Assembly (NCBI GenBank): GCA_964621645.1 | Contig: CAZUMH010000001.1 | Span: forward strand, 26,977 to 90,976 | Origin: an uncultured bacterium | GTDB lineage: Bacteria; Zhuqueibacterota; QNDG01; JAGLOF01 | DNA: 64,000 nucleotides | Direction: 5' to 3' | Part shown: positions 6,101 through 62,472 of the stretch, in pieces | Layout: each line of letters opens with the position of its first letter | How positions within the stretch are numbered: the first letter of the stretch is position 1 | The notes under the pieces: generated by a model | Database searches by the model: none | What the model was told of the DNA's origin: nothing | What the model saw: the letters and a program-made list of their open reading frames with translations, nothing else | Position numbers and translations under genes: made by a program

Positions 6101-8040
6101 TCACGTCCGCGATTCAGGACGCCTCATCACCCCCGGAAGCATTCGCGGGCCATATCAGCACCTTCACCACGGCGGTTGAGGCACAGACGCCTGTAATCGC
6201 GTATGTCAATCCTTCGCAAGGTGCGGAGGGGACAGCGGTCGTTATTTCCGGTGAGGGATTCGATCCGGATCCGGCAAACAACGTCGTTTCATTCAACGGC
6301 ATAACAGCGGCGGTTACTGACGCAACCTTAACCAGTCTGGCCGCTTCCGTCCCCATTTCCGCCGTCACCGGACCGCTCGAAGTCACGGTTAACGGCAGTA
6401 CCAGCAACGCCTATTCATTTACTGTCCTTCAGCCTTCAGGATTTCCTGACGAATATGATACAATCAATGTGCCTGGTGAGCTGGACAATCAGGACGTTGA
6501 ATTTTCACCGGACGGCGCTTATGCGTATGTCACCAATACAGGGGCAAACTCTATCAGTGTTATTGATGTGGCGAATGGTGATTTTATCGGACAACCTGTA
6601 TCTGTCGGCGGAAGCCCGGTCAAAATCACGGTAAGCCCGGATGGTAAAAAAGCGTATGTCACCAACTTTGCCTCGCATACCATCTCCGTGTTGAATACGG
6701 CGGTTCCGGCTGATGTTACGGTTGAAACGACAATTCCCGTGGGGATCAATCCGGCCGGTATAGCAATTTCACCGGACGGGAAACGCGTCTATGTCGGCAA
6801 CTATACTTCCCGCAACATTTCCATCATCGATGTGGATGAGAACAGCGGCGGGTATAACCATGTCATCGCCAACGTGGACACCGATTCCGAAAACCGGGAT
6901 GTGGAGTTCGGCCCTGACGGACTTCGGGTGTTAATCACCGGTATGGGTATCATTGTACTCGATACCAATCCGTCTAGTGATACATACAATCAGGTCATTG
7001 CCAATGTGGAGCCGGACACCGAAACACGGGATGTTGATTTCAGTCCCGACGGCATGCTCGCGGTTGTCTCAACCATGGCCGGGAATATACTGCTCATCGA
7101 CATGATGGAAAATACCGCATCACCTTATCAGGTCATTGCCAATATCCATCCCGAGCAGGAGGCCCATGATGTTGAATTCGGACCCGATGGATCACACATT
7201 TATACTACAAATTATTATTATAATCAGCTATCCATCTATGAGCTGACGTATGGCGGTGATACTGGAGGTTCCGGAAGCAGCTATCCCTATATCGCTTCCA
7301 TGCAGTTACTCCAGACAATCGATGTTGGCGGCGCGCCTATGGGGCTTGCGATCGACAGCGGTGGCGAACGTATCATCGTGGCCAATTCAGGATCAGGTGG
7401 TGTTACGATAATCGATCTGTTCGGTACGCCTGAAAGCAATATCAAACATACCCTCAGCACAATTCACCAAATACAGGTGGATGGTTTCATCAACAGCGGC
7501 CAGGCCAACGCCCTCACCAACAAGCTGAACAACGCCTTGGATAAGCTCGCAAAGGGCAAAACGAAAACCGCTATCAATATTCTGGAATCCTTCTGCAATC
7601 AGGTTCAGGCTCTTATTAATGATGGGATAATTCCCGCGGGCATCGGTGAAGACCTAATGAACCGGGTCAAGGATATCATCGTCAGCCTGGTCAGCGGCAG
7701 TTCAGCCAGTCCTGAAGAAGAAAACCTCATGCTTACAGAACAGATGCCTAAGACCTTTTCGCTCGAACAGAACTATCCCAATCCGTTTAATTCGTCTACA
7801 ACTATCGCCTATACCATCCCGGCGGTGTCGGCGAAAACCGTAGATGTTCGACTGATACTCTATAATATTCTGGGGGAACCGGTGCGCACTCTGGTCAGCG
7901 AACAAAAATATCCCGGATTTTACGAAGTGGTCTGGGATGGACGGGACGATGCGAACAGAGATGTCCCCTCAGGCATCTATATTTATCGGGTCAAGGCGGG
8001 CGATTTCACGCAACTCCGGAAGATGATTTTGATTAAATGA
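139..8040 (+). CDS. Giant secreted multidomain T9SS cargo protein (LamG-like, parallel beta-helix repeats, metzincin Zn-protease, CarboxypepD_reg-like, Ig-like/Big, IPT/TIG, YVTN beta-propeller, FIMAH, T9SS C-terminal sorting domain)
   Basis: 2633-aa ORF with RBS GAGGTG 5 nt upstream and an N-terminal signal peptide (FFLTITGFICIILTGQAFAQ). LamG signature LYVNG...IDEVRLWN. About 500 aa of NxISGN/NxIGxD beta-helix repeats. HEIGHVLGLVH (nt 4663-4695), an HExxHxxGxxH metzincin motif. SbsA-Ig-like and IPT segments. Repeated YVTN / SPDGKxxYV propeller units. FIMAH-like helix (ALTNKLNNALDKLAKGKTKTAINIL). C-terminal QNYPNPFN...YNILGEPV...SGIYIYRVKAG...KMILIK is a T9SS CTD. Confidence 0.85.
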   Translation: MMLSHSKSKRARAMFFLTITGFICIILTGQAFAQNQAAMFDGNLTVNNGSRIRITDSQPIDPGSANPAVYQISGDHITVEAWVYPFSADGPLYSIVRRPAVYPDPDPPYTYSLHMNAGVPYFGISDGSAGSAMETDYSETIPAFAWTHLAGTYDGSYLRLYVNGIERSSVFIETDIGSGSTGLYIGRLVGRAFAGLIDEVRLWNITRDQVDIQNDMSVELTGTETGLAGYWKFNGIEEINGFQAARDYTSNNNHLIVQYNTPFVTFNPIDHHDVDAAITAHTPSIDFGTIEQAYEWKTRTIDITNGSENPLVGIMWGNISANTEGTAVMYVPPYGTESFDISLRTKDAGSLSGDIAIDYNGGSETVSATIESVPVLRFDVNQIGLWTSRTGIAGYDPFTASAGLEWPIGSGKTALYSMGIRIGALVGNEIRIAAVNYNGSEFSPGPIINGTPADPEDPIYRMYKTGGPGDGDWDVWPLDQGAPASFWGSPKLLGDQTLFSVYNDMDPGKHTVFNTAPLGVEVQQTVYGYGSGSTALENTVFFVYKIINKGSHTWENAYISVWADPDLGYYMDDFAGVDVSRGLGYLYNADNFDDPNDSNPGYGTPPPALGIDMLRGAFLSTPIQAFTYHTGIGGSAPLDDPQNAQEAYNYMQGLKSDGSPFMDGGTPTTFPLSGDPVTGTGWVDAGEADRRIMLSTGPITLKPGESRQVIAALIMAAGSDNIDSITELRNASDAVQLLFDPIVVTSAADAGNGTFRAALEEANARPGIDYIHFNISGTGVHTLQPATPYPVVMDAVIIDGKTQAGYSGTPLIEIDGSGVTGTDQRGLVIIAGNSTVRGLAINRFGQAGIVLQDNGGNTIQGNFIGTDAAGGTALGNGGFALAVGCSSNLIGGSAPGEGNLISGNGYDGIFMSDPGGDDNQVLGNIIGLDLDGQAALGNGQCGVQISNNCVNNIIGPDNIISGNVSAGVCIAGAAAANNTVLNNKIGTDISGSLAIGNLQGVNIQAPNNIVSANLISGNTSDGITLHNSDAHNNTIKGNIIGLNAAGDATLANTSVGINITGHHNTVGGSTTADRNIISGNIQNGICIELGATENNILGNYIGTDITGTKAVPNDQSGIQIRLAANNHIGGKNAGEGNLISGNDKHGIYIYGTGVTLSHSNTVQGNYIGTDKTGLKSLPNTGSGIHYATYTWGNLIGGLEPGSGNLIAFNNGAGVSFGGGGLASPPYRNAIFSNSIYANVGLGIDLNFGLDGTPYGETPNDPGDADFGTNELQNFPVLSSVEFTTDAAIINGSLNSAANTDYTIQCFACKTAHESGYGDGETLLGTETVTTDGSGNVSFTFTFPISASAGQVISMTATDPSGNTSEFSEVSGGAASQLLDLSAMTFTINSQGDPTIGDGSDITAVEAAFATWNAVSECTVNFSTVTSPDYSIADANDGINLVTFTDNEFLFAPGVLAVAAKTIRMDAAGLPAEIIDADIVYNPYWTTHYKYNFKTDTDPGYFDIQSVTTHEIGHVLGLVHSGVETATMFFMIGSDINARTLETDDMAWVRSKYPETGTYSATYGSLTGRIEDGYSSGTGIAGALVYAISEATGDSVHTYSDANGDFTIPGLLPGNYTVFVEPLDGDVCGFALRPAHISAYIYAITKITDFPEEYYSGTSEGVSEVEDIAAIVTVSAGGPAGPITILTNRDVTPPVVLSVSPGSGSTDIAVTSQILAGFSEPVDAATISASTCFLSVGPNPVNCQMDYTMMDNDKKVLLTPGILLQHETDYTLHITSGVTDLHGNGLSSEYTSTFTTIPADIEAPSVTGVVPADGAGSIFPTANITVIFSEPVDASTLEAGFTLSTANISDVPASFTLNQSGSTVTFDPVNSLMEGTTYTVTLTADITDLSGNPLSSAPYSSSFTTVAQAAPLLEYIGPNPGQDNVSVTTTVLTEFSEPINPATVNPSSFILRQGSTQIAGNFEFLNNNAGVVFRPFEDLDFGLTYTIELTSAIQDASSPPEAFAGHISTFTTAVEAQTPVIAYVNPSQGAEGTAVVISGEGFDPDPANNVVSFNGITAAVTDATLTSLAASVPISAVTGPLEVTVNGSTSNAYSFTVLQPSGFPDEYDTINVPGELDNQDVEFSPDGAYAYVTNTGANSISVIDVANGDFIGQPVSVGGSPVKITVSPDGKKAYVTNFASHTISVLNTAVPADVTVETTIPVGINPAGIAISPDGKRVYVGNYTSRNISIIDVDENSGGYNHVIANVDTDSENRDVEFGPDGLRVLITGMGIIVLDTNPSSDTYNQVIANVEPDTETRDVDFSPDGMLAVVSTMAGNILLIDMMENTASPYQVIANIHPEQEAHDVEFGPDGSHIYTTNYYYNQLSIYELTYGGDTGGSGSSYPYIASMQLLQTIDVGGAPMGLAIDSGGERIIVANSGSGGVTIIDLFGTPESNIKHTLSTIHQIQVDGFINSGQANALTNKLNNALDKLAKGKTKTAINILESFCNQVQALINDGIIPAGIGEDLMNRVKDIIVSLVSGSSASPEEENLMLTEQMPKTFSLEQNYPNPFNSSTTIAYTIPAVSAKTVDVRLILYNILGEPVRTLVSEQKYPGFYEVVWDGRDDANRDVPSGIYIYRVKAGDFTQLRKMILIK

Positions 8041-41750: not shown

Positions 41751-41882
41751 ATTCTCTTCTTTTTTTTTGGAGAATAATCCGGAGAGGATAGTATGATGTT
41801 TATGCCTTCCGGGATACCTGTCCGGAACATTCGGAGATATCAGAGCCTACCCGTTCCGCGTTTCGGAACTGCTTCTATTCAC

Positions 41883-42218
41883 TTATTGGTGCTTACGAAG
41901 CTTTTCCAAGACGGCGCCGGCTTCGGGGGCGATTTTAATAAAATTCATTATTGTCTCACATCCGTAATCGTCACAGGCGGCACAATGTTCAACATTCCTG
42001 GAAATACAGCATTTCCGGATTTCGCAAATATTCTCACAATAAAAGAATTTTTTCCCCGTTGCAGTGCAGCCGTCACAGTTAATGCTTTCCGGCGTGATAT
42101 CGGACTTGTACATCTGGGTCCATTTCTCCGCTACTTCGGATCTGGCACGATCATCATCCGCTTGAGTAGCAAGATAGGCTTCACACTGTGAACAATCCAA
42201 CCCGCAATAAGCGATCAT
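41883..42218 (-). CDS. Cysteine-rich DUF3795-family protein
   Basis: [15 protein letters not shown]...CDGCTATG...[11 protein letters not shown]...CAACDDYGC. Multiple CxxC clusters typical of DUF3795. Confidence 0.55.
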
Positions 42219-42326
42219 TTTTCTCTCCCGTTAGCTTAAATGGTAAAATGGACTTCTCCCCGATCTTACTGCGCTCCTGCGTTCCATTGGAGAGCGAATC
42301 GGATTCCACACGCTTCCGCTCCAGTT

Positions 42327-43286
42327 CTAGTAGCGGACGTTTATTTTTTTTTCTGCAGCGTTTTTACTGATTTTCTTCTCAAGCAATTGATAGATCGAAT
42401 CCGCGAACCTGACACCCAAATCCAGATACCCATTGCTGTCGTAATGCCAGGGATCGGAATAGTAATAATACCTGGTGGTCCTGACGATCATGGCATTTGT
42501 ATCCGTCCTGGCATACTTCTCTTCGGCGTACTGCACCAATTCACCGTAGTTCCAGACTTTCCCGTCACTGTCATTCCAGGAATCAGATATTTTGCCTATG
42601 ACAACAGGGAGATCATCGGTATGCAGGCTGGCCCGGATCAAATCCATCAGTCTCTTTAAATTTTGATAGTAACGATTTGCTATTTTTTCATTAAAGGATG
42701 CATCCGCTTCTCCCTGCATCCAGACGATCCCTGAAGGGATGAGGATATCTTCCCTTCCGTCTTTATCGATATCCTTGACCGACAGGGCCTGATGTACTGT
42801 TCTAAGGAAATGATCGTATTGATTGATTCCGTTTTCCCCTTCAAAGTCCGGTTCCCAGCAGCCGAAATACCCCGCTGCCATGGAATCGATGGAGGTTCCT
42901 CCCCGGGAGTATTTGATCAGGGCGATCTTTTCACCAGGATATAACTTCTGCAACCGTTTGGCAAATGCCAGCTCGACTCCAAACCGGTCGGAATAATGAT
43001 TCTTCTTGCCGTCGGAGGTAAAACCAACCCCGTGTCCAGGTTTCAATTTCTCCCAGAAGCCCAATCCCCCCGAACTGTCCCCGTCCGCGGCGGAATTGCC
43101 CTGGAATATCCAGACATTTGACCGGGTTTTAAAAGAATCCGGTAGATCTTTTACATAACCGTATCCATCCATATTCGACTGGCCGCCCAGGAAAAACACC
43201 CGGATTTCATTCCTGTTTTTCCCTTGGCCGAAGGCGAAGAATGGGAGTAACGCCACGCACAGGATGATCATTACTATTCTTTTCAT
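42327..43286 (-). CDS. SGNH-hydrolase carbohydrate esterase, sialate-O-acetylesterase (SASA/DUF303) type, putative acetylxylan esterase
   Basis: Signal peptide, then the hallmark GQSNMDG motif of SASA-domain esterases. C-terminal DPWHYD catalytic His region. Confidence 0.8.
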   Translation of the reverse strand: MKRIVMIILCVALLPFFAFGQGKNRNEIRVFFLGGQSNMDGYGYVKDLPDSFKTRSNVWIFQGNSAADGDSSGGLGFWEKLKPGHGVGFTSDGKKNHYSDRFGVELAFAKRLQKLYPGEKIALIKYSRGGTSIDSMAAGYFGCWEPDFEGENGINQYDHFLRTVHQALSVKDIDKDGREDILIPSGIVWMQGEADASFNEKIANRYYQNLKRLMDLIRASLHTDDLPVVIGKISDSWNDSDGKVWNYGELVQYAEEKYARTDTNAMIVRTTRYYYYSDPWHYDSNGYLDLGVRFADSIYQLLEKKISKNAAEKKINVRY

Positions 43287-43419
43287 GATCGCTCCTCTGA
43301 ATTAAATAATCTCAAGTCGATTTTGAATGAAAGATCAGTGTATGAAATATAATCAAATCAAACAGGTTTTGCAATGAAGGGATAGCGCCATTCACTGATC
43401 ACCTGATTCGAGGCGGCCC
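43287..43419. repeat. Promoter/5'-leader segment of the SGNH esterase gene, duplicated at 47889-48012
   Basis: About 75-80% identity over ~130 bp with 47889-48012. This includes the block AACAGGTTTTGCAATGAAGGGATAGCGCCATTCACTGATCACCTGATTCGAGGCGGCCC (43361-43419), which matches 47954-48012. Confidence 0.6.
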
Positions 43420-43576
43420 TACAATCTTTATCAACTTCGGTAGAATCACTTCCGGATGTACACCGCTCAACAATCTTCATCTTTTTAATTAAATGAATCG
43501 TAATGGTGGGAGTTTTAATTGCCACTGCTACTATTTTCCCGGGATCTAAAAGCGGTTAAAGAAATTTCGTTATTTA

Positions 43577-44269
43577 TCAAATTCTTATCAAAAATTGATA
43601 TAATGGCCCCAGGGTAAAGAAAGCCTCGATCAATTCATCGACCAATTTCGCCGAAAACAATATTTCATCTATAGATTTATTTCGACAGAAATAGAAGGAC
43701 TTTAGCTGGAACCATTCCTGTAGATCTTCCGGGCAATCATTTTTAATCGGTTTTTTATATTGTTCCCCTTCCAGACTGAATGGACTATCACTTTCTCTGT
43801 AAAAAGCAATTGCCCTTTTAAAGGATTTACTATTCTGACTTATCGCCTCTCTAAAATTATCCATGACTTTTCTGGAAGCACTGTAAAAACCCATGCCGTA
43901 TCTGTAGGAATCTACGGATATCTCAAAAAAATATCCAATTGACTCTTCCTGCCAGTTTTTCGATGGCCGTTTAAACACGATCCACATCTTATCCTTGAAA
44001 AGTGATTTATCTCTGGAGAATCGGGTGTCACGATAGATTCGTGATATTGTCCTGTTAATCGATGGCCTCGTTTCGAAATAGGGATCGATTGTCAGCATCG
44101 CTTCTTCCAGATCACCAACTAATTGCCGAAGTGGATCTAACAACATTCTTTGATACTCCGAATTAGGCTGTTGGAACCATGGTTTACTGTTGTTCTCTCT
44201 TACATTCCTGAGGAACTCCAGAGTGGCAGGGGAAAAACCGGAAAATGATTTGATATCTTGTTCATTCAT
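43577..44269 (-). CDS. DUF2461 (TIGR02453) family protein
   Basis: FLRNVRENNSKPWFQQP...YQ...DPYF...SRIYRDTRFSRDKSLFKD is the conserved DUF2461 signature. Confidence 0.75.
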   Translation of the reverse strand: MNEQDIKSFSGFSPATLEFLRNVRENNSKPWFQQPNSEYQRMLLDPLRQLVGDLEEAMLTIDPYFETRPSINRTISRIYRDTRFSRDKSLFKDKMWIVFKRPSKNWQEESIGYFFEISVDSYRYGMGFYSASRKVMDNFREAISQNSKSFKRAIAFYRESDSPFSLEGEQYKKPIKNDCPEDLQEWFQLKSFYFCRNKSIDEILFSAKLVDELIEAFFTLGPLYQFLIRI

Positions 44270-44513
44270 ATGAGTACTCTTATGGGAATAATGGTGTTAG
44301 GCACACAATCCTCCTAGTCCGGAAGGAGCTATTAGAACTGTTCTTTTCATTGCTATGTATCTTTTAAATGCCCGCCTTAATTTCACCCTGTGAATGAAAT
44401 CCTTTACGGACCTGCCGAAAGACGGAAATTGATCCGACTTGCTTAAATCGATTCGTCCGAAGAAGGCACATTCCTGATGAATATCCAAGATGAGCGGAGT
44501 TTCCTGTCACACC

Positions 44514-45512
44514 TCAGTGCCGCTGGGCCACATAAATATCCGACTCTATCTTATGTCCTTCATCATCATAGAATACATGGGTGAAATAGAGATTGCCCGC
44601 GGCGTCCAGACCCGGATCGCCGACATAGTTGGACACGATCTCTTCCGGAGTGCTCCAGGTATCACCGGATTTTCTTGATCTGAAAACTGCCGGCCCGCCA
44701 TAGCCCAGACCGCTTACTCTCGCGAACCAAAGATCAGCGCCATCCGCTGAAACAAAGGGTTGCCCTTCATTTCCGGACGTGTTAACCAGAGCGCCGAGAT
44801 TAACCGGTACGGACCAGCTCTCGCCCTGCCGGACTGTATGCCAGATATCGAGGTCGTTGCCCGAATTCGATTGTGCGCCAAAAAAAAGAGTCTTACCGCC
44901 CGCGGTCGGGTATAATTCACCAGCATCGAAATCCTGATTTAACTGTTCGCCGGCGTTCTGCCAGTTGGTCCAGGTCCCTTTGGAAAGTACCGCGGTCCAG
45001 ATATCCAGATCGCCGTAATTCCCCGCTCTGGCCGAACCGAACCAAAGTGTGTCTCCCTGGACGGCAAAAGGACCGTCCAGGTGCAGTTCACCCGGATCAG
45101 CCAGCCGGGCCCGTACCGGTTCCGTCCAGGAGGAGCCGTCCCAGGTGCACCACCACACACCGCTGACACCGTCGAAGAGCTGATCCTCAGCCGGAATGTT
45201 CCCGTCGGGCGTGAAGAAGAAGATGAATGTACTGCCGTCAGGAGTGATCACGGGGGCATCCTCAATACCGGCGGTGTTGATTGGACCGGCCATAGGGACT
45301 GTATCATAAAAGTCTGCGGAATGGAGCACGGGCGGAAAGTAATCAGTGGCGGGAGTCATTTTGACAGCATCCGCGGCAAGAGATTCCTCACGGGTCATTT
45401 CTTCCGAATCATCAGGATTTTGCTTGAGAGAACATCCGTAAAAAATAAAAATGACAGCTATCAAATGAATCTCAGGCGATAATGTCAACCACGAGAGCTT
45501 TTTTGTAATCAT
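44514..45512 (-). CDS. Lipoprotein with TolB-like PD40 beta-propeller repeats
   Basis: Lipobox FYGCS. ITPDGSTFIFFFT, LWFGSARAGNYGDLDIW and LFFGAQSNSGNDLDIW repeats. This is a paralog of 29247-30152. Confidence 0.65.
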   Translation of the reverse strand: MITKKLSWLTLSPEIHLIAVIFIFYGCSLKQNPDDSEEMTREESLAADAVKMTPATDYFPPVLHSADFYDTVPMAGPINTAGIEDAPVITPDGSTFIFFFTPDGNIPAEDQLFDGVSGVWWCTWDGSSWTEPVRARLADPGELHLDGPFAVQGDTLWFGSARAGNYGDLDIWTAVLSKGTWTNWQNAGEQLNQDFDAGELYPTAGGKTLFFGAQSNSGNDLDIWHTVRQGESWSVPVNLGALVNTSGNEGQPFVSADGADLWFARVSGLGYGGPAVFRSRKSGDTWSTPEEIVSNYVGDPGLDAAGNLYFTHVFYDDEGHKIESDIYVAQRH

Positions 45513-45597
45513 ATCAATGATTGGACTGATAATAATGATTATTCATAGGACAAACGAGTACGACCGAGCCAGGATCGATGGCAACAAACAAGAATTA

Positions 45598-46473
45598 CTA
45601 AATAAACTCACCCTGGGCCACGATGATACTTTTCCCACCGATAGAAATAGTAATGTTTTCACCGCTCTTTTCAGCTTTTAAAAGCAAAAGAGACGGCCTG
45701 CCGATTTCATACCCTTGTTCACTGCGGATATCGATGCTGTTTTTTCCAAAATAGCGATATTTCACCAGGTACCCCGCCAGGCAGCCGTTACCGCTGCCCG
45801 TTGCCGGATCTTCGGGAATTCCGTAATAATCAACAAATACCCGCACACTGATATCATTCTCAGGTTTGTGTGTTTCGGGGCAAAAAATCAGAACCCCCTT
45901 TGCCTCTGTATCCTTTATCAATGTAAAATACTTATCCTTTTCGAGTTTCGTCTTTTTCAGCGCTGCAATATTCTTCAACGGCACGATGAAAAAAGGCAAT
46001 CCGGTGGATACTTCCTGAATCGGAAAACGATTGTCAATATCAGTGAGATCTATACCAAGAATACGCGCAAGTTTTTCAGGTTCGTGTTGTTTACCGAAAT
46101 CCGGCTGAATTTGTTTCATCCAGCAACCGCCGTCTTTTAAAAAAGTAACTGGTATCCGGCCCACCTTCAAATTGAGCACAACATCACCGGATTGATCCGG
46201 AATAATGACGCTGTGAATGACATGGGCCGTTCCTAGGGTTGGATGACCAGCAAAAGGGACTTCTTCATTCGGCGTAAATATGCGAACATCAAAGCCGCCG
46301 TTGTTTTTTTCATCTGAAAGGATGAATGTGGTCTCAGAGAAATTTATCTCTCTGGCGATGCCTTGCATTTCTTCGCCACTGATTTTACCGGCGTAGCGAA
46401 ACACTGCCAGTTGGTTACCCGCATATTTTTTCTCGGCAAAGACATCAACGATGTAGAAAGTAAGTCCTTTCAT
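45598..46473 (-). CDS. PhzF-family isomerase (phenazine biosynthesis-like protein, DapF-like fold)
   Basis: FYIVDVFAEKKYAGNQLAVF...INFSETTFIL...RIFTPNEEVPFAGHPTLGTA shows the canonical PhzF motifs, including the catalytic Glu in SETTF. Confidence 0.85.
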   Translation of the reverse strand: MKGLTFYIVDVFAEKKYAGNQLAVFRYAGKISGEEMQGIAREINFSETTFILSDEKNNGGFDVRIFTPNEEVPFAGHPTLGTAHVIHSVIIPDQSGDVVLNLKVGRIPVTFLKDGGCWMKQIQPDFGKQHEPEKLARILGIDLTDIDNRFPIQEVSTGLPFFIVPLKNIAALKKTKLEKDKYFTLIKDTEAKGVLIFCPETHKPENDISVRVFVDYYGIPEDPATGSGNGCLAGYLVKYRYFGKNSIDIRSEQGYEIGRPSLLLLKAEKSGENITISIGGKSIIVAQGEFI

Positions 46474-46543
46474 GGTATTTACTCCGGAATGTGATGAAAT
46501 GTTTACTTTTATTCCGCTGTAGACCTGTGTATCATGTCGCTGT

Positions 46544-47374
46544 TTATCGCCGACGGGTCTCTACTAAAATCGTGAGTGCCATTTGGGACACAATCGTCGG
46601 AAGGTTTTGAGAGTCACCTTCATAATTATTACTCCATAAATGCGTATCCGTAGCTACTTCGATCAGGGTTACATTGATTCGTATTCTATCTCCTCTTGCC
46701 ATTACCGTTCCTTCTATAATTGCATCGGCGGACAGTTCACGCCCTATCTCGGTCACCTGTCGATACGGATCATAGTGTTGCATTACTGCCTCCCGCGATA
46801 TGACCTTTTTTACAGGCATTTGAGACAGGTTTTTAATAAGACTACCAGTTATCTCGTCAGCTAAGTTCTCGTGCCCAGGCTCATTTGATATGTTTGTGAA
46901 CGGTAACACTGCGATCGATTCGATCTTAGGAGCCGCTAAAGGAGCTGAAGGAAAATTGTACAAATAAATCATAGGCCAGACGAGGGCAATAAGGCCAATC
47001 ACGGCAAGAATAGCAACCGTGAAGCCTGTTGATTGTGAACCTGACGACAATTCTCCAAATCGATTGTCCCCTTGAGTGCCTGCGGAAAGGCCAGCCTCAA
47101 TAAAAGCCCAGAATGGACCAACAAGGGGAATAAGGGAAACGAAAATATACCACCCTGACTTATTCCGATCATGCCAGCGTTTAATCATGACCGCAATGGC
47201 TGGCCACGCTGACAAGAATATTACCGCACATGCGACTATTCCTCCGGCCCGTGTCATGAAATCAATGAGACAGGCAATATTCCAGAGTGCATAGATGGGA
47301 ATGAGCCCCCTAAGCCAAAACGTCCGACGATCGATGCGTCCCTTGGGCGATAAATATAGTTGTATGAATGGCAT
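46544..47374 (-). CDS. DUF805-domain inner-membrane protein with additional C-terminal extracytoplasmic domain
   Basis: GRIDRRTFWLRGLIPIYALW...MIKRWHDRNKSGWYIFVSLIPLVGPFWAFIE is the DUF805 (YhaH-like) core. A TM follows, then a ~130-aa C-terminal domain of unknown type. Confidence 0.7.
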   Translation of the reverse strand: MPFIQLYLSPKGRIDRRTFWLRGLIPIYALWNIACLIDFMTRAGGIVACAVIFLSAWPAIAVMIKRWHDRNKSGWYIFVSLIPLVGPFWAFIEAGLSAGTQGDNRFGELSSGSQSTGFTVAILAVIGLIALVWPMIYLYNFPSAPLAAPKIESIAVLPFTNISNEPGHENLADEITGSLIKNLSQMPVKKVISREAVMQHYDPYRQVTEIGRELSADAIIEGTVMARGDRIRINVTLIEVATDTHLWSNNYEGDSQNLPTIVSQMALTILVETRRR

Positions 47375-47520
47375 ATTTCACTCCTCCCAAATTGGTTTAC
47401 ATGTACCCAAACGTATATCCTAAATCATGTAAAAGAACTTGACTCAGCAGTAACAATATCCCCGGGTGAATGTATATATGAGAAACCTGATTATTCGCAA
47501 AACTAATAATCTTGTTCAGC

Positions 47521-47793
47521 AGGGGCTCATGCCCCTACGGAGTAAAATCAATACAAATTAAATTACTTTAATTCTTGTCCCGCTAGGGACAAAATGTTTA
47601 TATGACACCCTCCCCTATTGATCAAGTCCCGTTAGGGACGAAATAATATCTCTCCCCATGAAGGCTCATGACCTTGCAGATAAAAATATTATTGCACAAC
47701 ACTAAAAACCTGTCCCGGTATTCTTTAGGTCGGGAGGCATGACGAAGGACAATTTCCCCTCTCCGCGGGGGCTCATGCCCCTGCGGAGTAAGA
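47521..47793. repeat. Cluster of short hairpin-forming repeats (MITE/REP-like). Two copies of GGGGCTCATGCCCCT(A/G)CGGAGTAA flank two copies of (C)TTGTCCCG(C/T)TAGGGAC(A/G)AAAT plus degenerate relatives.
   Basis: Read directly: 47521-47547 and 47767-47793 are a direct repeat, each with a 5-bp stem GGGGC/GCCCC. 47575-47596 and 47624-47645 are each GTCCC-GNTA-GGGAC palindromes. Degenerate copies lie at 47661-47677 and 47709-47744. The right-hand copy sits exactly where homology of the truncated esterase fragment ends. Confidence 0.5.
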
Positions 47794-47888
47794 AAAAACA
47801 CCCGGATAAGATTCTGATTATTTGCTTGGCCGAAGACAAATAACGGCATAAGGATCAAGCAAAGGATAAGCATCCGTTTTATTTTCAT
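47622..47888 (-). pseudogene. Truncated duplicate of the 5' end (signal peptide + first ~33 codons) of the SGNH/SASA esterase gene 42327-43286
   Basis: MKIKRMLILCLILMPLFVFGQANNQNLIRVFFL aligns with MKRIVMIILCVALLPFFAFGQGKNRNEIRVFFL of the intact gene. Homology stops at the GGGGCTCATGCCCC repeat. The GQSNMDG catalytic motif is absent, and the upstream region is also duplicated. Confidence 0.55.
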
Positions 47889-48012
47889 GGCTGCTCCGCT
47901 GAATTAAATAGTATTACTGGTTATTACGATCGAAGGTTCCGTGTATAAAATATAAGCAAATCTAACAGGTTTTGCAATCAAGGGATAGTGCCATCCTCTG
48001 ATCATCTGATCC
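47889..48012. repeat. Second copy of the esterase promoter/leader segment (see 43287-43419)
   Basis: 47954-48012 (AACAGGTTTTGCAATCAAGGGATAGTGCCATCCTCTGATCATCTGATCCGAGGTCGCCC) matches 43361-43419 at ~85% identity. Confidence 0.6.
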
Positions 48013-48422
48013 GAGGTCGCCCAATGACCGGCATTATCATCATTGCAATCACCGCTGCGGGTTACCAAGTCAGGTATCTGCATAAACTGATTGAATAATA
48101 CTTCGATGGCGGATATGTGGCTTTTTCATGCAGATGTTCCTCAAGAGAGCCCAAACATACTGTCTTATCTAGCAGAAGATGCTCCGGCTTTCTACCGGGT
48201 TTGCTGATTCCTGTTAGCCTATATAGGCGGTTCGGGTATCCCACCTCAGATACTATGGGAGTTCTGGAAAATCCTTTTCGATTTAAAAAACTATTTGATA
48301 TATAATTTGAAAAAACTACATTTCAATAATATCGGTGGAGATATAAATATCGATTATAACCTCTCAAATAATAACTCAAAACATAAAGGAATTAACAAAT
48401 TAGTATCTGGAAAGGGCTTAAA

Positions 48423-49094
48423 ATGCGAAGATGTATTTTATATGCCGCAACCATTATCGTTCTCCTTATAATATGTGCTTGTAATAATAAAGAGTTCGCC
48501 AAAGTTTATTGGCAGGGAGATTTGATTCAGAATAAGACGGATGTAAAGTATTTATACTGGCAGGATGGAAACCAGTATTTTCGACAACAGGAAGACAGTG
48601 TGATCGTAGAGTTGACAGGGTTTTCAGTAAATAGAATGGTTTTACTGCTCATTTCCTTAAGAAATAACAAAAACCAAATATTTACTTTCCTTCCTAATGA
48701 ATGTACATTATCGTACGACTTTGACGACAATCCTATCGATTTAAAACCGAGCAGACCGAAAAATCTGGATAAAAAGCAGCTTTCTCTATTCAATTCCATC
48801 ATCAGCAGCGCGGGTACTATCACCAAGCTGATTATTAATATACCGGCAGACAAGCTTATCTCACAAAAAAGACAAAGCCCATTGTCGACCATCGATTCAG
48901 AGTATAGAGAGAATGAGATTAAAATCACCAAAAAGATATTCGTTGGAAATCATACGTTGATGCCGCAGTCAAGCTATGCGGGATTTCTGGTATTTGAATA
49001 CGAAAAAGAGTATCCATTAATAGACCGTTTATTCACTATTCAAATAGTAACCGCTCACCATCAGTTTACGGCATCGGGGACACTCCGTTTATAA
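48423..49094 (+). CDS. Hypothetical lipoprotein in AT-rich islet
   Basis: Lipobox LLIICAC. The surrounding ~1.3 kb (48050-49400) is markedly AT-rich relative to the contig. No known domain. Confidence 0.5.
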   Translation: MRRCILYAATIIVLLIICACNNKEFAKVYWQGDLIQNKTDVKYLYWQDGNQYFRQQEDSVIVELTGFSVNRMVLLLISLRNNKNQIFTFLPNECTLSYDFDDNPIDLKPSRPKNLDKKQLSLFNSIISSAGTITKLIINIPADKLISQKRQSPLSTIDSEYRENEIKITKKIFVGNHTLMPQSSYAGFLVFEYEKEYPLIDRLFTIQIVTAHHQFTASGTLRL

Positions 49095-49462
49095 TTATAA
49101 AATGTAATCGCCAAAAATTTTTGAGGTTAACCGGCCCTTCTTTATTGATATTTTCTTATTTTAACCGGAGACTAATGAATAAAAATATTACATATTCCCC
49201 TTCAAATCAACAATAATATAACTCTCGGAGGGAAGATCTGAATTGGTAAATTTCTTACCTTAATGAATATTGTCCATTATTCTCAGAAACTGTAGGATAT
49301 TCTCCAGAATTCTCACCATAGCAACGCACCCGATCTACTGACTCCATCCTCCTAACTGCCTTATATTTAATCTACTATGGCAATCTCATTCATTGGAGAA
49401 ATTATTTGGCACCGCATTTGTATGTTACGCCCGGAAACAAAGATCAAAGAAGGAGTAAAGAA

Positions 49463-57075: not shown

Positions 57076-60000
57076 TTACTTGAGGAAGATCATTTTCCTG
57101 ACCGCCTTGTACCCTCCCATCTCGATCCGATAGAAATAGATACCTGATGAAAGGCCTTTCGCGTTAAACACAACGATATGGCTTCCCGCTTCATACCGCT
57201 TATTGGTCAACACTGCCATTTCTTCTCCCAGGATGCTGTAGACTTTCAGCGTGACGTTACAGGCCTTCTTCACGGTAAATCGAACGGTCGTCTCCGGATT
57301 GAATGGATTGGGATAATTCTGCAGCAGCTCGAATTCGCCCGGGATGCCAATGTATTGATCCTTTTCGCTGACATCGGTGACATTGACATTGATCAGATAG
57401 TCCTCAACCTCACCATCCGCGGCTGGCCCGTTGAAAGTCAGACCTCCGGCGGCGTTGAATCGGAATCTGGCAAAGAGAACCGAATCAGTGAACGCCGAAT
57501 CAGGTATGGAATAATTGAGGAAATTATTACCGGCATGCAGAGGCTGATTGATAAATATCTGTTCACCGCCGTCAAGCCAGTCACCATCGCTGTTGAAGTC
57601 GATCCAGGCGTTGATGAATCCGGAATCAGAAGCTGAGGCTGTCAATGTAGCGCCGGTTCCCGGAGAAAGCGGCGACGTAAAGAATATCCCGTCATCATCA
57701 TTATCTCCCGCTATATCATCCCCGTCAGCCACATTGTTCGGCTGGCCGTCATTTTCGCTGTCAATCTTGTTGCCTAACATATACCCTGACACCCATTTAT
57801 GCATGGCACCACCGCCAGCCCAGAGGGTTGGATAGGGTGGGTCAGGAGCGTCACCGAAGTCAAATTTTGTATCCGCCGTGCTGATCAGGACTGCGTAATC
57901 CTCCACTTCACCGATGGGAGGCAGATCGAGCTGATCGGGATAATCAGAGAAATGGGCCGGACCATCATACGACAATCCGCCGGTATCGCTAAAACGGAAC
58001 CGGGCGTAGGTTATCCCGGGTGCCGCTGAAGCGGGCACGGCAATGGAGATCAGGTTCGTTCCCGAAGACAACTGACCGTCCTGCACGATCTGCTCCCCCG
58101 CGTCGTCCCAGCTGGAATCGGCGTTGAAATCAATCCAGGCATTCAAGATACCGGAACCGGAAGCGGTCACCTGAAGCTGCATGGTTTGTCCTGGAATCAA
58201 GGCTTTGGGGAAACTGACTCCATCATCATCATCCATACCATCATTATCATCCCCGGAACCGCCGGGACCCGGCTGACCGTCAGGATCAGGATCCACATAG
58301 TTCCCGAGATGAAATCCCGACTGAATCGTGTGAATCGCCCCGCCGTCAACATGCAACACGCCGTAGGCTCGCGAGGGAACATCTCCGAAATCGAAGACAT
58401 CGCTGTAGTCATCGATTTTAATCAGATAGTCCTCGGTCTCACCGTCCACGAAATCACCTGAGCCGTCCCAGCCCCAATGTTCCACCATGGTTTTCGTGAT
58501 TGTACATCTCATCCAGGCATACCCGGCATTGGGACCGATTCTGAAGGTCGGCGGGGATTTTGTAGAGAGCAAGCCGCCGTCAGAAATGTAGAAATTACGC
58601 AGTACCCGTTCGGGAATCGTCGGGCTGCCGTCACCCGGGTCGATGATATCCTTCCAGTCACCATCCTGATTCCAATCGATGGCAACATTGATGTAGGCGC
58701 CGGTCTCATGCATATTTATCACGGTCATAAGATCGAGGTTGACACCCCAGGCGGCAATCTGCCCGATACTCCCGATGGTCTCGGGCAGTCCGGTGCCGTC
58801 ATCATAAGCGACCACGGTTTCAGAGCCGGCTGAACCGGTGATGTGATGAGGGAATACTCCCCGTAATCCGGCATCCCATTTATAGGACATGAGGAGCGTA
58901 TTGTGGAAATCCTCATCCGCATCATAGAAACCGGTAAACAGAGGACTGAAGCCGGCGTTTCCCTCATATTCATAATCCACTGAGTAACCAAAGTACCGGT
59001 CGCCGCCGTGAGCGTGCCTGATATACCCTTCACCGGTAACGTTGACACCGGTGGGGAACTGTCCTGTGACTCCGGTCGAGGGATAGGCCAGCGCGCCTTC
59101 AGGCGCGTCACCGTAATCATACATCCCGTCGTAGGAGACGCAGATGAGATAATCCTCCGTCTCACCATCACTAAACGTACCGGAGCCGTCCCAGTCGGAC
59201 GCTACCGGGGTATCGGAAAGAGTAACCCGCATCCAGGCGAATCCTTCCGTATTGCCGATGGTAAATTGAGGCGGACTCAGATCGCTCACTTTCCCCGTAC
59301 CCGCGGGAATGGGGAAATTTTGCAGCACATGCTCATCGGTATCACCCCAAGTACCGTTCTGGTTCCAGTCGATGAGAATATTCAGATAAGCTCCATCAGG
59401 ATCGGTCACACTGTAATGAATATCGAGGTAATTGTTATAAGCGAGATATCCCCAATGCACCAGCTCACCGGTTTCACCCAGCACTCCTTTATCCTGATGA
59501 TAGGCACTGTAGGCCCAGTAATGCAGATACCCGCCGGTTTCACGGATCGTGTAGGCATGCGGCGAGATGAGACCGATATCGCCGGTTGCCAGGGAACTGG
59601 TTCTTACATCGTTCATTCCTTCATCCTGGTCGTAATCGCCGCCAAAGGGCGGCAGGACTCCGGCATTCCCGTCCGTCTCATAATCGACGGACCACCCCAG
59701 CTGCCTGGTACCGGCTGTACCGTGTCTGACAAATCCGGCCGTGGTAATATCCTCGAAGGTGGGGAATTGACCGGTGACACCCAGATGAGGATAGGCCTCG
59801 GCATTTTCCGGGGCATCACCGTATTCGTAGAGAATCTCCAGCCGGTCGAATATATTGATGCGGTAGTCTTCCACCTCTCCGTTGATCGCGTCTCCGCCCA
59901 CGGAATCGATCGGCAGCGTGGAGTATCGGAACCGGATATAGGCTGTTCCAGCATGGAAAAGGGAATCCTCCACGCTGATGTCGATTTCATTGACACCAGC

Positions 60001-62472
60001 CTGTACCTGAATCTTTGTCGCTTCATAGACAAAATTACCAGCTGCCAATGGCTTGCTGTTCTGCCCGTTCCCTGTGGATGGGTACCCGCACCAAATACCG
60101 AGGAATCCATTCTGGGAGGCGCTTACCACCGCGGTCACCGTATCTCCCAGTACCCAAGCGCCCTTAAAGGAGACACCATCATCGTCATCGTTCTGGTCGC
60201 TGCTGAAATCACCCATAGCCGTCGAATCAGGTGTGCCGTCCTCATCGGCATCCACGCCGGAACCGAGATAGATTTCTGGGTCAATCATATGGCGGGCGCC
60301 CCCCTGCTGTCGGAGCGTGGGGAACGGCCAAGGCGCATCTCCGTAATCGAACATCATCTTTCCGATGCGAACCCGGTAATCCTCAACCTCCCCGGCGTGT
60401 GAACTCGGTCCGTCGGAGCCTGGCAGCGCATCATCATCAGAGTAGCGGAAGCGGGCGTAAGTGTAGCCGATATGAACATCCGCCGGAATGAGACGACGGT
60501 AGGTGTTGGTTCCGTCAGAGGTAGTGATACCGTCAAAAATTTTCTCGCCTGCATCATTAAAATCGCCATCATGATTGAAGTCGATCCAGCCGTGCAGCAA
60601 GGGATAGAAAGGTGATGTATAGTTTCCCCAGGTGGTAATCTCGAAACTGCTCTCCTCTCCAGGAATCAGTTCGGAGAACACAACGCCGTCTTCATCATCA
60701 TGGCCGTCGGTATCATCCCCCAAGGCATCAGGATCGGGACTTCCATCAAGTTCATTGTCAGTATAAGTGGTACCCAGAAAAATGAGGATATTCCCCCGAT
60801 GACAGGCACCATCGGGCTCGAGTGTGCCGTATGAATCGGGAGCGTCACCGTAATCGAGATATGCTTCGGTTACGGTGCACAAGTAGTCCTCAACCTCCCC
60901 GTTGCCGCCACGGCCATAGGGGGTCAGGAGCGGATCGACGCTGTAACGGAAGCGGGCGTAGGTGTTGCCAAGTTCAGCGGTTTCCGGCACATTAAAATTC
61001 ACCGGGTATATCCCGGTGCCGTGGGTGTTATTATAATTAATTACATACTCCCCGGCATCGGCCCAGTCGCCATCCCGGTTCCAGTCGAACCAGCCGTGCA
61101 GGGTGCCGGTGCCTTTGCATGAAACAATCACCATTGACGCCTCTCCCGGAGTAAGCGCCATCCAAAAGAGAATGCCCTTTTCATCGTCTAGGTCGGTATC
61201 ATTGTCACCTCTGGCGTTAAGTGTAGGCTGGCCGTTGCCTTCCAAATCGGGAGGTGTGCCGGGCATGTAGGAGTAGAGATCAGACCCCCTGTCTACCAGA
61301 TAGATCGTATCGGAAACAGTGTGTCTGGCACCGTTATGGGACCGGAGGGTGGGGTAATGATATATGTCGTCATCAGGAGCGTCCCCATAGTCAAAGAAGT
61401 GGAAATTCTCGATGTAAAACTGCATATCCTCTACTTCACCTTTTGTCACCAGCCCGGTGGCGCCGGGAATGGTGTTCTCGGAATAACGGAAGCGGGCAAA
61501 GGTATTGCCTTCCTTGGCGTCAGCCGGAACGACGATACCGATATCATTGGCGCCCGCTCCAACCTGAGTATCTGCCGCCTCTTCACCGGCGTCATCCCAA
61601 TCACCGTCCTGGTTCCAGTCGAACCAGGCCTTGAGATATCCGCCTGATGATGCGGTAATCCTGACAAGGGCAGTGTCACCCGGGACAAGTTCCTGCAGCA
61701 ATTCGATGCCGTCCTCATCATCGTTCCCGTCATTGTCGTCTCCGGTGGCAGTGGAATCAGGCTGTCCGTCAGTGTCGGCGTCCACACCCTGTCCAAGATA
61801 GATACCTTCGGCGATGGTGTGTCTGGCTCCGCCTTCGTTCAACAGGGTCGGATAGGGTGCGGGAGCGTCACCGAAATCATAGGAATCAGGCGGTGATGAA
61901 TCGGTAATGGTCACCAGATAATCTTCCACTTCACCCTCATATCCATATCCGGTATAGGAAATACCGCCGTTGCTGTTGAAACGGAAACGGGCAAAAGTGT
62001 ATCCTGCGGCAGCACCCGAGGGGACAGAGATGTTGAGAGTATTATTACCGGCTGAAAGGGCTTGATTTGAAAAAATATGTTCACCCGCATCGGCCCAGTC
62101 GCCGTCATCGTTAAAGTCGAGCCAGGCGTTCAGGGTGCCGCTCGCAGAAGCAGTGACAACAATTGTGGCCGTACTGCCTTTAATCAGTGTGGAGAAACTG
62201 ACGCCGTCTTCATCATCGGTGTTATTATTGTCGTCTCCTTTTCCATCAGAAGAAGGTATTCCGTCATTTTCATCATCAACCTTGTTCCCCAAATAGAATC
62301 CAGCGACAATTTTATGGTAGGCGCCGTTGGAATTCAATATTGTCGGATAGGGATTGGGGGCATCTCCAAAGTCATAGAGAGTCTTCTGGGCAAACACGGC
62401 ATTCCCTGCCGCCAGCAAGAGAACAGCCAGCAGTATCCCTGTTTTTCGAACAACAGTACTAAACCTCATCAT
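57076..62472 (-). CDS. Giant T9SS cargo protein composed of nine tandem ~190-aa Asp-rich repeats, each ending in a GEVED motif (GEVEDY / GETEDY)
   Basis: Signal peptide. Nine units of the form Y-DFGDAP-x-PYPT...GARH...LG..VD.D.DG.P...GDD.DG.DDEDGV.F...L.PG...AW.DFN.DGDW.D.GE...ARFR(F/Y)S...GEVEDY. The C-terminus LLQNYPNPFNPETTVRF...VYSILGEEM...SGIYFYRIEMGGY..KMIFLK is a T9SS CTD. Confidence 0.85.
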   Translation of the reverse strand: MMRFSTVVRKTGILLAVLLLAAGNAVFAQKTLYDFGDAPNPYPTILNSNGAYHKIVAGFYLGNKVDDENDGIPSSDGKGDDNNNTDDEDGVSFSTLIKGSTATIVVTASASGTLNAWLDFNDDGDWADAGEHIFSNQALSAGNNTLNISVPSGAAAGYTFARFRFNSNGGISYTGYGYEGEVEDYLVTITDSSPPDSYDFGDAPAPYPTLLNEGGARHTIAEGIYLGQGVDADTDGQPDSTATGDDNDGNDDEDGIELLQELVPGDTALVRITASSGGYLKAWFDWNQDGDWDDAGEEAADTQVGAGANDIGIVVPADAKEGNTFARFRYSENTIPGATGLVTKGEVEDMQFYIENFHFFDYGDAPDDDIYHYPTLRSHNGARHTVSDTIYLVDRGSDLYSYMPGTPPDLEGNGQPTLNARGDNDTDLDDEKGILFWMALTPGEASMVIVSCKGTGTLHGWFDWNRDGDWADAGEYVINYNNTHGTGIYPVNFNVPETAELGNTYARFRYSVDPLLTPYGRGGNGEVEDYLCTVTEAYLDYGDAPDSYGTLEPDGACHRGNILIFLGTTYTDNELDGSPDPDALGDDTDGHDDEDGVVFSELIPGEESSFEITTWGNYTSPFYPLLHGWIDFNHDGDFNDAGEKIFDGITTSDGTNTYRRLIPADVHIGYTYARFRYSDDDALPGSDGPSSHAGEVEDYRVRIGKMMFDYGDAPWPFPTLRQQGGARHMIDPEIYLGSGVDADEDGTPDSTAMGDFSSDQNDDDDGVSFKGAWVLGDTVTAVVSASQNGFLGIWCGYPSTGNGQNSKPLAAGNFVYEATKIQVQAGVNEIDISVEDSLFHAGTAYIRFRYSTLPIDSVGGDAINGEVEDYRINIFDRLEILYEYGDAPENAEAYPHLGVTGQFPTFEDITTAGFVRHGTAGTRQLGWSVDYETDGNAGVLPPFGGDYDQDEGMNDVRTSSLATGDIGLISPHAYTIRETGGYLHYWAYSAYHQDKGVLGETGELVHWGYLAYNNYLDIHYSVTDPDGAYLNILIDWNQNGTWGDTDEHVLQNFPIPAGTGKVSDLSPPQFTIGNTEGFAWMRVTLSDTPVASDWDGSGTFSDGETEDYLICVSYDGMYDYGDAPEGALAYPSTGVTGQFPTGVNVTGEGYIRHAHGGDRYFGYSVDYEYEGNAGFSPLFTGFYDADEDFHNTLLMSYKWDAGLRGVFPHHITGSAGSETVVAYDDGTGLPETIGSIGQIAAWGVNLDLMTVINMHETGAYINVAIDWNQDGDWKDIIDPGDGSPTIPERVLRNFYISDGGLLSTKSPPTFRIGPNAGYAWMRCTITKTMVEHWGWDGSGDFVDGETEDYLIKIDDYSDVFDFGDVPSRAYGVLHVDGGAIHTIQSGFHLGNYVDPDPDGQPGPGGSGDDNDGMDDDDGVSFPKALIPGQTMQLQVTASGSGILNAWIDFNADSSWDDAGEQIVQDGQLSSGTNLISIAVPASAAPGITYARFRFSDTGGLSYDGPAHFSDYPDQLDLPPIGEVEDYAVLISTADTKFDFGDAPDPPYPTLWAGGGAMHKWVSGYMLGNKIDSENDGQPNNVADGDDIAGDNDDDGIFFTSPLSPGTGATLTASASDSGFINAWIDFNSDGDWLDGGEQIFINQPLHAGNNFLNYSIPDSAFTDSVLFARFRFNAAGGLTFNGPAADGEVEDYLINVNVTDVSEKDQYIGIPGEFELLQNYPNPFNPETTVRFTVKKACNVTLKVYSILGEEMAVLTNKRYEAGSHIVVFNAKGLSSGIYFYRIEMGGYKAVRKMIFLK
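57372..62390 (-). repeat. Nine tandem coding repeats (~570 bp period, diverged) of the GEVED-domain unit
   Basis: Periodicity of the DFGDAP and GEVEDY motifs seen in the translation. Copies are divergent at the DNA level. Confidence 0.6.

Follow-up and report, generated by a model that had tools for sequence, protein, structure and literature searches.

A diverged relic of an esterase gene start, with its upstream DNA, 4.6 kb from the intact gene in an uncultured bacterium

The stretch of DNA analysed here, 64 kb from the genome of an uncultured bacterium (hereafter, the window), encodes on its minus strand an intact SASA-type esterase of the SGNH clan and, 4.6 kb upstream of it, a second, truncated version of the start of such a gene, accompanied by the non-coding DNA that precedes it. 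The intact protein matches the Pfam family PF03629 (SASA) over residues 29-299 (E = 5e-31), which covers the catalytic domain, and has 2553 homologues at E <= 1e-20, many of them labelled sialate O-acetylesterase by their sources; the nearest of these is 71% identical and lies in a different gene context. The truncated version opens an open reading frame (ORF) of 88 amino acids (aa). A preliminary description of the locus, made from the sequence alone, had proposed that the esterase promoter and the first 33 codons of the gene were duplicated and that the duplicate was cut off at a hairpin repeat. The positions of all features are collected in Table 1, where the esterase-proximal member of the repeat pair is copy 1 and the relic is copy 2.

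When the two regions were compared pairwise by blastn, positions 43189-43449 aligned with positions 47791-48052, both on the minus strand, over 263 bp with 191 identities (73%), 3 gaps and E = 3e-44, and an independent repeat search recovered the same pair (families D3 and D5, with spacings of 4603 and 4602). The alignment, which the preliminary description had named as the check that could undo its claim, dismisses chance similarity and bears out that the 5' region of the esterase gene was truly duplicated together with its upstream DNA and then diverged. The identity of about 80% given in that description is, however, too high for the repeat as a whole: values of this order are reached locally, with 84% in a 63-nucleotide (nt) block and 45/50 in the best 50-nt window. 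The partner assigned there to positions 43361-43419, namely 47954-48012, also has to be replaced by 47964-48022, at an offset of 4603. The longest exact run common to both copies is 15 nt, and the window has two occurrences of the 21-nt block core, CCCTTNATTGCAAAACCTGTT, against none in 100 shuffles.

Read 5' to 3' along the minus strand, the repeat consists of four parts. It begins with a weakly similar portion (52% identity over 60 nt from an ATG shared at 43480/48083), which is followed by the well-conserved block and then by the 74/75 nt leading to the start codon, in which a fully conserved TATTTAATTCAG precedes GGAGC; the fourth part comprises 33 codons, MKRIVMIILCVALLPFFAFGQGKNRNEIRVFFL in the esterase and MKIKRMLILCLILMPLFVFGQANNQNLIRVFFL in the relic, and both peptides read as the preliminary description gave them. 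The colinear similarity therefore runs from non-coding DNA through the ribosome-binding region and the ATG to the end of codon 33. It stops at 43189/47791, where the esterase continues with GGQSNM from codon 34 on and copy 2 continues with TTACTCCGCAGGGGCATGAGCCCCCGCGGAG, so that the homology of the relic ends at L33, two codons short of GQSN. The last homologous base of copy 2, 47791, is at the same time the first base of a hairpin repeat unit, TTACTCCGYAGGGGCATGAGCCCC (family D1, 47762-47791), and the truncation had thus been placed accurately. A search of the window with the whole esterase by tblastn found residues 6-36 at 47781-47873 (61% identity over 31 aa, E = 3e-8) and no further esterase fragment in the 64 kb.

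With the homology ending before the catalytic motif and no Pfam match to the 88-aa ORF, the copy is a relic, as had been proposed, and is without esterase function. What it retains is the upstream region, the ribosome-binding region (GGAG), the ATG, an open frame and a signal peptide with an FGQ cleavage-like site. A search of 5.8 billion proteins with the 88-aa ORF returned nothing but its own entry in the source record (P0138), and exact-sequence look-ups of the relic protein and of the neighbouring DUF805 and PhzF proteins gave no match. Comparison of the 33 relic residues with the 120 closest esterase homologues identified the window's own esterase as the best match (62.5%, E = 3e-13), the next one reaching 52%; no intact paralogue that matches the relic better is present among these 120. 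The differences within the 33 codons are distributed 8/8/15 over the codon positions and affect 7 codons synonymously and 13 non-synonymously.

The preliminary description had also considered that the duplicate might be an artefact of assembly. Collapse of two copies during assembly is excluded, because the copies have no exact run longer than 15 nt in common, and a run of this length is likewise too short for a mis-join. Contigs from another sample, namely those of the Joint Genome Institute (JGI) metagenome 3300031277 (Ga0307425) and of the Logan assembly of SRR8556602, are 99.9-100% identical to the window and confirm the upstream half of copy 1 at 100% identity; copy 2 is present only in the window's own contig. 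Near copy 1 the ends of these contigs fall at 43340 and 43348/9, and those near copy 2 at 48108 and 48308. We rejected the possibility that the breaks mark a structural variant, given that the ends are nearly identical, the contigs are only 1-5 kb long and neighbouring contigs are separated by an 8-nt gap. The near-identical ends indicate that the JGI and Logan contigs probably stem from one read set, and a gap of 8 nt, as opposed to an overlap of k-1, speaks for low coverage and against a branching assembly graph. The simplest account of the breaks is that intergenic, AT-rich DNA was poorly covered.

Conservation between the copies peaks in a 50-nt segment of the upstream block, where the excess is modest, an identity of 45/50 being reached in 2.5% of alignment-column shuffles (p = 0.025). 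Both copies carry, within this segment, the identical TTGCAA-N17-TATATT, the two boxes of which are correctly spaced for a promoter consensus. A motif scan additionally returned TTG-N20-TATATTT(C/T) at 43345-43374 and 47948-47977, and copy 2 contains an exact TAGATTTG, at the position of which copy 1 carries TTGATTTG. The sigma-A promoter of Bacteroidota, described for flavobacteria, consists of -33 TTTG and -7 TAnnTTTG (PMC9723704). Two C-terminal sorting domains of the type IX secretion system (T9SS) are encoded in the window, and on this basis the organism is placed in the Bacteroidota/Fibrobacteres-Chlorobi-Bacteroidetes (FCB) group; the GC content of the flanking genes, 0.53-0.58, is high for this group. 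Judging from the consensus matches, the esterase and its lost sister gene probably have, or had, their core promoter within this block. Of the roles that the preliminary description had offered for the block, that of a promoter is thus weakly supported by the identical TTGCAA-N17-TATATT and by the modest excess conservation; those of a structured RNA leader and of an element of the esterase family are not supported.

For the latter role, the surroundings of four homologues with 67-71% protein identity were examined (P0002, P0013, P0018 and P0008, from the contexts L007, L015, L016 and L017), which represent four unrelated gene contexts. Both blastn and a two-sequence nhmmer profile failed to find the block in these contexts, and none of them shows synteny with the window; the block is accordingly not a promoter or leader element common to the upstream regions of these esterases. 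Exact-pattern scans for the 21-nt core in the genome, metagenome and viral collections returned the source contig, a 1.6-kb contig identical to the window and four chance matches of ~21-24 nt to CCCTTNATTGCAAAACCTGTT without any extension, which led us to reject the block as a widespread element. Two of the unrelated esterase homologues, in L007 (near 7440) and L017 (near 5975), have a common TAGCTAATTTAAA ~10-15 nt before their start codons, and TATTTAATTCAG is conserved in the window copies at a similar distance. The two motifs may represent a common AT-rich translation-initiation or -7-like feature in these lineages.

The upstream DNA was further examined as RNA and as a coding frame. Rfam gave no match at the gathering score and, at E <= 5, just chance-level matches to small nucleolar RNA and microRNA families, and the folds of the leader and the block (z = -0.02, +0.67, -1.41 and -1.09 against shuffles) neither exceed those of shuffled sequences nor agree in structure between the copies; a structured RNA leader or riboswitch was rejected on these grounds. 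Aligned frames of 40 codons can be read on the minus strand at 43361-43480 and 47964-48083, and both end in WxYP(F/L)IAKPV, i.e. ...W(R/H)YP(F/L)IAKPV. An upstream ORF of 40 codons was rejected as well: the 38 differences fall 14/12/12 by codon position, the 27 changed codons comprise 3 synonymous and 24 non-synonymous ones, and in copy 2 the frame no longer has its stop codon (TGA to AGA).

The DNA between the relic and the DUF805 gene is a hairpin-rich non-coding spacer that begins inside the 88-aa ORF, with 247 nt of it (47375-47621) following the stop codon of that ORF. It contains at least five hairpins of two sequence types. Type A has two members, at 47761-47788 and 47516-47545, and a degenerate third one at 47652-47680; the first of these, directly after the relic, has a GC-rich stem of 12 bp with 92% complementarity (47761-47772/47777-47788), and the unit TTACTCCGYAGGGGCATGAGCCCC recurs 246 nt on (47516-47545). 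Type B, GTCCCGYTAGGGAC, is found at 47577-47590 and 47626-47639. Folded as RNA, the 426 nt from 47375 to 47800 reach -143 kcal/mol (z = -4.47 against shuffles). The spacer has no Rfam match, TRF found no tandem-repeat array in it, the hairpins showed neither terminal inverted repeats nor a target-site duplication that could be recognised, and the hairpin cores, two exact ones per type, do not occur elsewhere in the 64-kb window; a search of the viral collection gave no match to the hairpin, for which the genome and metagenome collections were not searched. The spacer could be a decayed cluster of repetitive extragenic palindromic (REP)-like or miniature inverted-repeat transposable element (MITE)-like sequences, or a structured RNA of an unrecognised kind. 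None of the minus-strand hairpins is followed by a T-run, so that none is a canonical terminator. The presence of TACGTTTG shortly before the DUF805 gene suggests a candidate promoter that would serve this gene and those downstream of it.

Along the minus strand the genes follow in the order 88-aa ORF, DUF805, PhzF, PD40, DUF2461, a gap of 290 nt, esterase, DUF3795, GH3 and GH43. The two copies of the repeat thus enclose four co-oriented genes (43577-47374), and the GC contents of these, which differ among themselves, are 0.39, 0.54 (the PD40 gene), 0.44 and 0.46. They belong to a low-GC mosaic islet of 7-8 kb (~41800-49100), in which GC per gene is 0.37-0.47, except for the PD40 gene with 0.54, and which is flanked by GH3 and GH43 genes on one side and by DUF302 and a TolC/HlyD/AcrB efflux operon on the other, the flanks having a GC content of 0.53-0.58. 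A tRNA scan and scans with Pfam and NCBIfam found no tRNA, integrase or transposase among the neighbours of the islet, and an origin as a mobile element was rejected for this reason. The complete architecture of the DUF805 protein, with its TolB-N/FlgO-like domain, has a single homologue (48% identity, on a 1.9-kb contig) among the 5.8 billion proteins, all other matches spanning the DUF805 part only; the short contig of this homologue gave no synteny by way of the DUF805 neighbour. Elsewhere in the window, 57076-62472 (minus strand) encodes a 1798-aa protein in which seven GEVED domains are combined with a T9SS C-terminal sorting domain and whose internal repeats account for most direct-repeat families of the window (D1, D2, D6, D7, D12, D13 and D17), and 139-8040 (plus strand) encodes a 2633-aa protein with Laminin_G_3, a beta-helix, an M10 matrixin peptidase, Big_5 (three stretches), a lactonase-type propeller and a FlgD_ig-like C-terminus.

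Table 1. Features of the esterase locus and of the relic region, in window coordinates (aa, amino acids; nt, nucleotides; CDS, coding sequence)
Feature	Position	Strand	Description and evidence
Intact SASA-type (SGNH clan) esterase gene, 319 aa	42327..43286	-	signal peptide; GGQSNM at codons 34-39
Repeat copy 1	43189..43449	-	163 nt of upstream DNA and first 98 nt of esterase CDS; blastn, repeat families D3/D5
Best-conserved 50 nt, copy 1	43342..43391	-	TTGCAA-N17-TATATT at 43374-43346; also readable as TTG-N20-TATATTTC
DUF2461/TIGR02453 protein	43577-44269	-	Pfam/NCBIfam
PD40 beta-propeller protein	44514-45512	-	Pfam/NCBIfam
PhzF-family isomerase	45598-46473	-	Pfam/NCBIfam
DUF805 fused to C-terminal TolB-N/FlgO-like domain	46544-47374	-	Pfam/NCBIfam
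Hairpin-rich non-coding spacer, relic to DUF805	47375..47790	.	416 nt; repeat search (D1-D3, I13), fold
TACGTTTG, -7-like (TAnnTTTG match)	47408..47415	-	33 nt upstream of DUF805 ATG; motif scan, PMC9723704 consensus
88-aa ORF	47622..47888	-	codons 1-33 esterase-like signal peptide; codons 34-88 unrelated, read through hairpins
Repeat copy 2 (relic)	47791..48052	-	matching upstream DNA and 33 codons of a probably lost paralogue; blastn, tblastn
Best-conserved 50 nt, copy 2	47945..47994	-	TTGCAA-N17-TATATT at 47977-47949; exact TAGATTTG (TAnnTTTG) at 47964-47957

In our assessment, copy 2 is likely to be what is left of the 5' end of another SASA esterase gene, a paralogue preceded by the same upstream regulatory DNA. 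The relic is more similar to the esterase of its own genome than to any of the listed homologues, and because this best match is combined with shared non-coding DNA that is unlike that of the other loci examined, the two copies appear to go back to a common segment within the lineage or very near to it. We infer that a segment comprising at least ~165 bp of upstream DNA and the esterase gene would have been duplicated, or a closely related copy acquired, that both copies would then have diverged to ~73% identity, and that a deletion or replacement would have removed everything past codon 33 of one of them, with the junction at the hairpin-rich repeated spacer. The lean of the differences towards third codon positions and the presence of only 1-3 indels fit a long divergence of the two as working genes, with the truncation coming later, the numbers being too small for a formal test. 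The low-GC mosaic composition of the surroundings supports a history of gene turnover. Retention of the relic promoter is plausible from the conserved boxes, and its core may still fire; in that case, the most likely product would be a short transcript and an orphan 88-aa signal-peptide ORF.

Several observations weigh against this history. The search for a relative that has a second, intact esterase at this place was unsuccessful, and the course of events is reconstructed from one genome of a very poorly sampled lineage. The bias among codon positions comprises 31 differences and is not significant alone. The small number of indels and the lack of a stop codon in 263 bp at 27% divergence would also be compatible with constraint on the promoter and start region. 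Furthermore, the promoter call is a consensus match that admits three overlapping readings (sigma-70-like, TTG-N20-TATATTTY and TAGATTTG).

These observations have to be considered together with the other explanations of the repeat. Under one of them, a regulatory module was copied, i.e. the promoter, leader and signal-peptide start were duplicated to provide an extra promoter that ties the expression of the DUF805-PhzF-PD40-DUF2461 genes to that of the esterase. The arrangement would suit such a module, given that the five genes and both copies share the minus-strand orientation and the relic stands in front of the block of four genes, that conservation within the repeat is highest in the promoter-like core, that the relic has kept the ribosome-binding region and ATG, and that the minus-strand hairpins include no canonical terminator. 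However, 416 nt with five hairpins, one of them a 12-bp GC-rich stem, intervene between the relic and DUF805, in a stretch that folds far more stably than its shuffles; TACGTTTG could serve DUF805 as its own promoter; the GC contents of the four genes, spread from 0.39 to 0.54, are not like those of one co-evolved unit; and the 33 retained signal-peptide codons would be purposeless. We consider the regulatory module unlikely, and read-through from the relic promoter into DUF805, PhzF and PD40, which the preliminary description had envisaged, is doubtful on the same sequence features. The small number of indels, the preserved ATG and ribosome-binding region and a core that has changed less than the coding part do hint at selection on the module. 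That selection has kept it, either for co-regulation of the four genes with the esterase/glycoside-hydrolase cluster or for expression of a newly born 88-aa secreted peptide, nevertheless seems no more than a slim prospect to us.

The last of these options can also be stated in its own right, with the relic as a new small gene that has taken over promoter, start site and signal peptide from the esterase and encodes a peptide of 88 aa, either secreted or in the membrane. Its frame is open and intact, with ATG, GGAG and a signal peptide with the FGQ site, indels are few, and it is called as a protein in the source record; but the 55 residues past the signal peptide are a read-through of hairpin repeats, with no homologue among the 5.8 billion proteins and no Pfam match, and such a gene is very improbable. 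Somewhat less improbable, yet still clearly disfavoured, is a Campbell-type insertion, in which circular DNA carrying the four genes and a fragment homologous to the esterase 5' region recombined with the esterase locus by a single crossover and left direct repeats on either side of the insert, the upstream one being cut short at the limit of the homology that the circle brought in. The topology fits, as direct repeats 4.6 kb apart flank foreign-looking low-GC genes and the upstream copy alone is truncated, but there is no integrase, transposase, tRNA or other mobile-element gene nearby, identity between the repeats is down to 73%, the longest exact run being 15 nt, and the differing composition of the enclosed genes argues against a single incoming piece. 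The reading of the upstream block as a functional RNA or a small coding frame of 40 codons has in its favour an ATG at the same aligned position in both copies, 40 in-frame codons without indels and a well-conserved C-terminal half. It is already largely refuted by the even spread of differences over codon positions, the preponderance of non-synonymous changes, the missing stop codon of copy 2, the lack of Rfam matches beyond chance level and the folds that differ between the copies and do not beat shuffles, and we assign it a minimal probability. Chance similarity or an assembly artefact can be practically dismissed as the source of the repeat, considering the E value of the alignment, the confinement of the 21-nt core to the real sequence and the shortness of the longest shared run.

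The remnant of a paralogous esterase gene, which we favour, is ordinary genomic debris of a known kind; it represents no new system, would not surprise a specialist and opens no long-standing question. Its significance lies in more practical matters. The 88-aa 'protein' P0138 is best labelled an esterase gene fragment in annotation, the conserved 50-nt core is a concrete candidate promoter for an uncultured, T9SS-bearing lineage of the Bacteroidota/FCB group, and the locus points to gene turnover in a small zone beside a carbohydrate-degradation cluster of GH3, GH43 and esterase genes.

Compared with known systems, the intact gene is a clear and ordinary member of the SASA/SGNH esterases (PF03629). 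The relic has the signal peptide in common with it, and also the IRVFFL strand found ahead of the catalytic GQSN, but is without any catalytic domain, and therefore cannot be an esterase. With respect to promoters of the sigma-70 type, with -35 and -10 boxes, the candidate site of both copies has 9/12 consensus matches. The TTG-N20-TATATTTY reading of the block resembles, as a consensus match, the -33 TTG and -7 TAnnTTTG of Bacteroidota sigma-A promoters. The hairpins of the spacer are similar to REP sequences, bacterial interspersed mosaic elements (BIME) or MITE-like repeats in that several short GC-rich palindromes are clustered in a single intergenic region, at the junction of a rearrangement; they are unlike them in that the copies are confined to one spacer within 64 kb and show no recognised terminal inverted repeats or target duplication. 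Finally, like the pseudogene fragments of other bacteria, the relic is homologous to part of a working gene, has no catalytic part, is followed by unrelated sequence and lies in a mosaic region. It differs from such fragments in having no intact ancestor copy among the relatives in the collections, in keeping an upstream region, a ribosome-binding region, an ATG and an open frame, and in a promoter-like core that is better conserved than the coding part.

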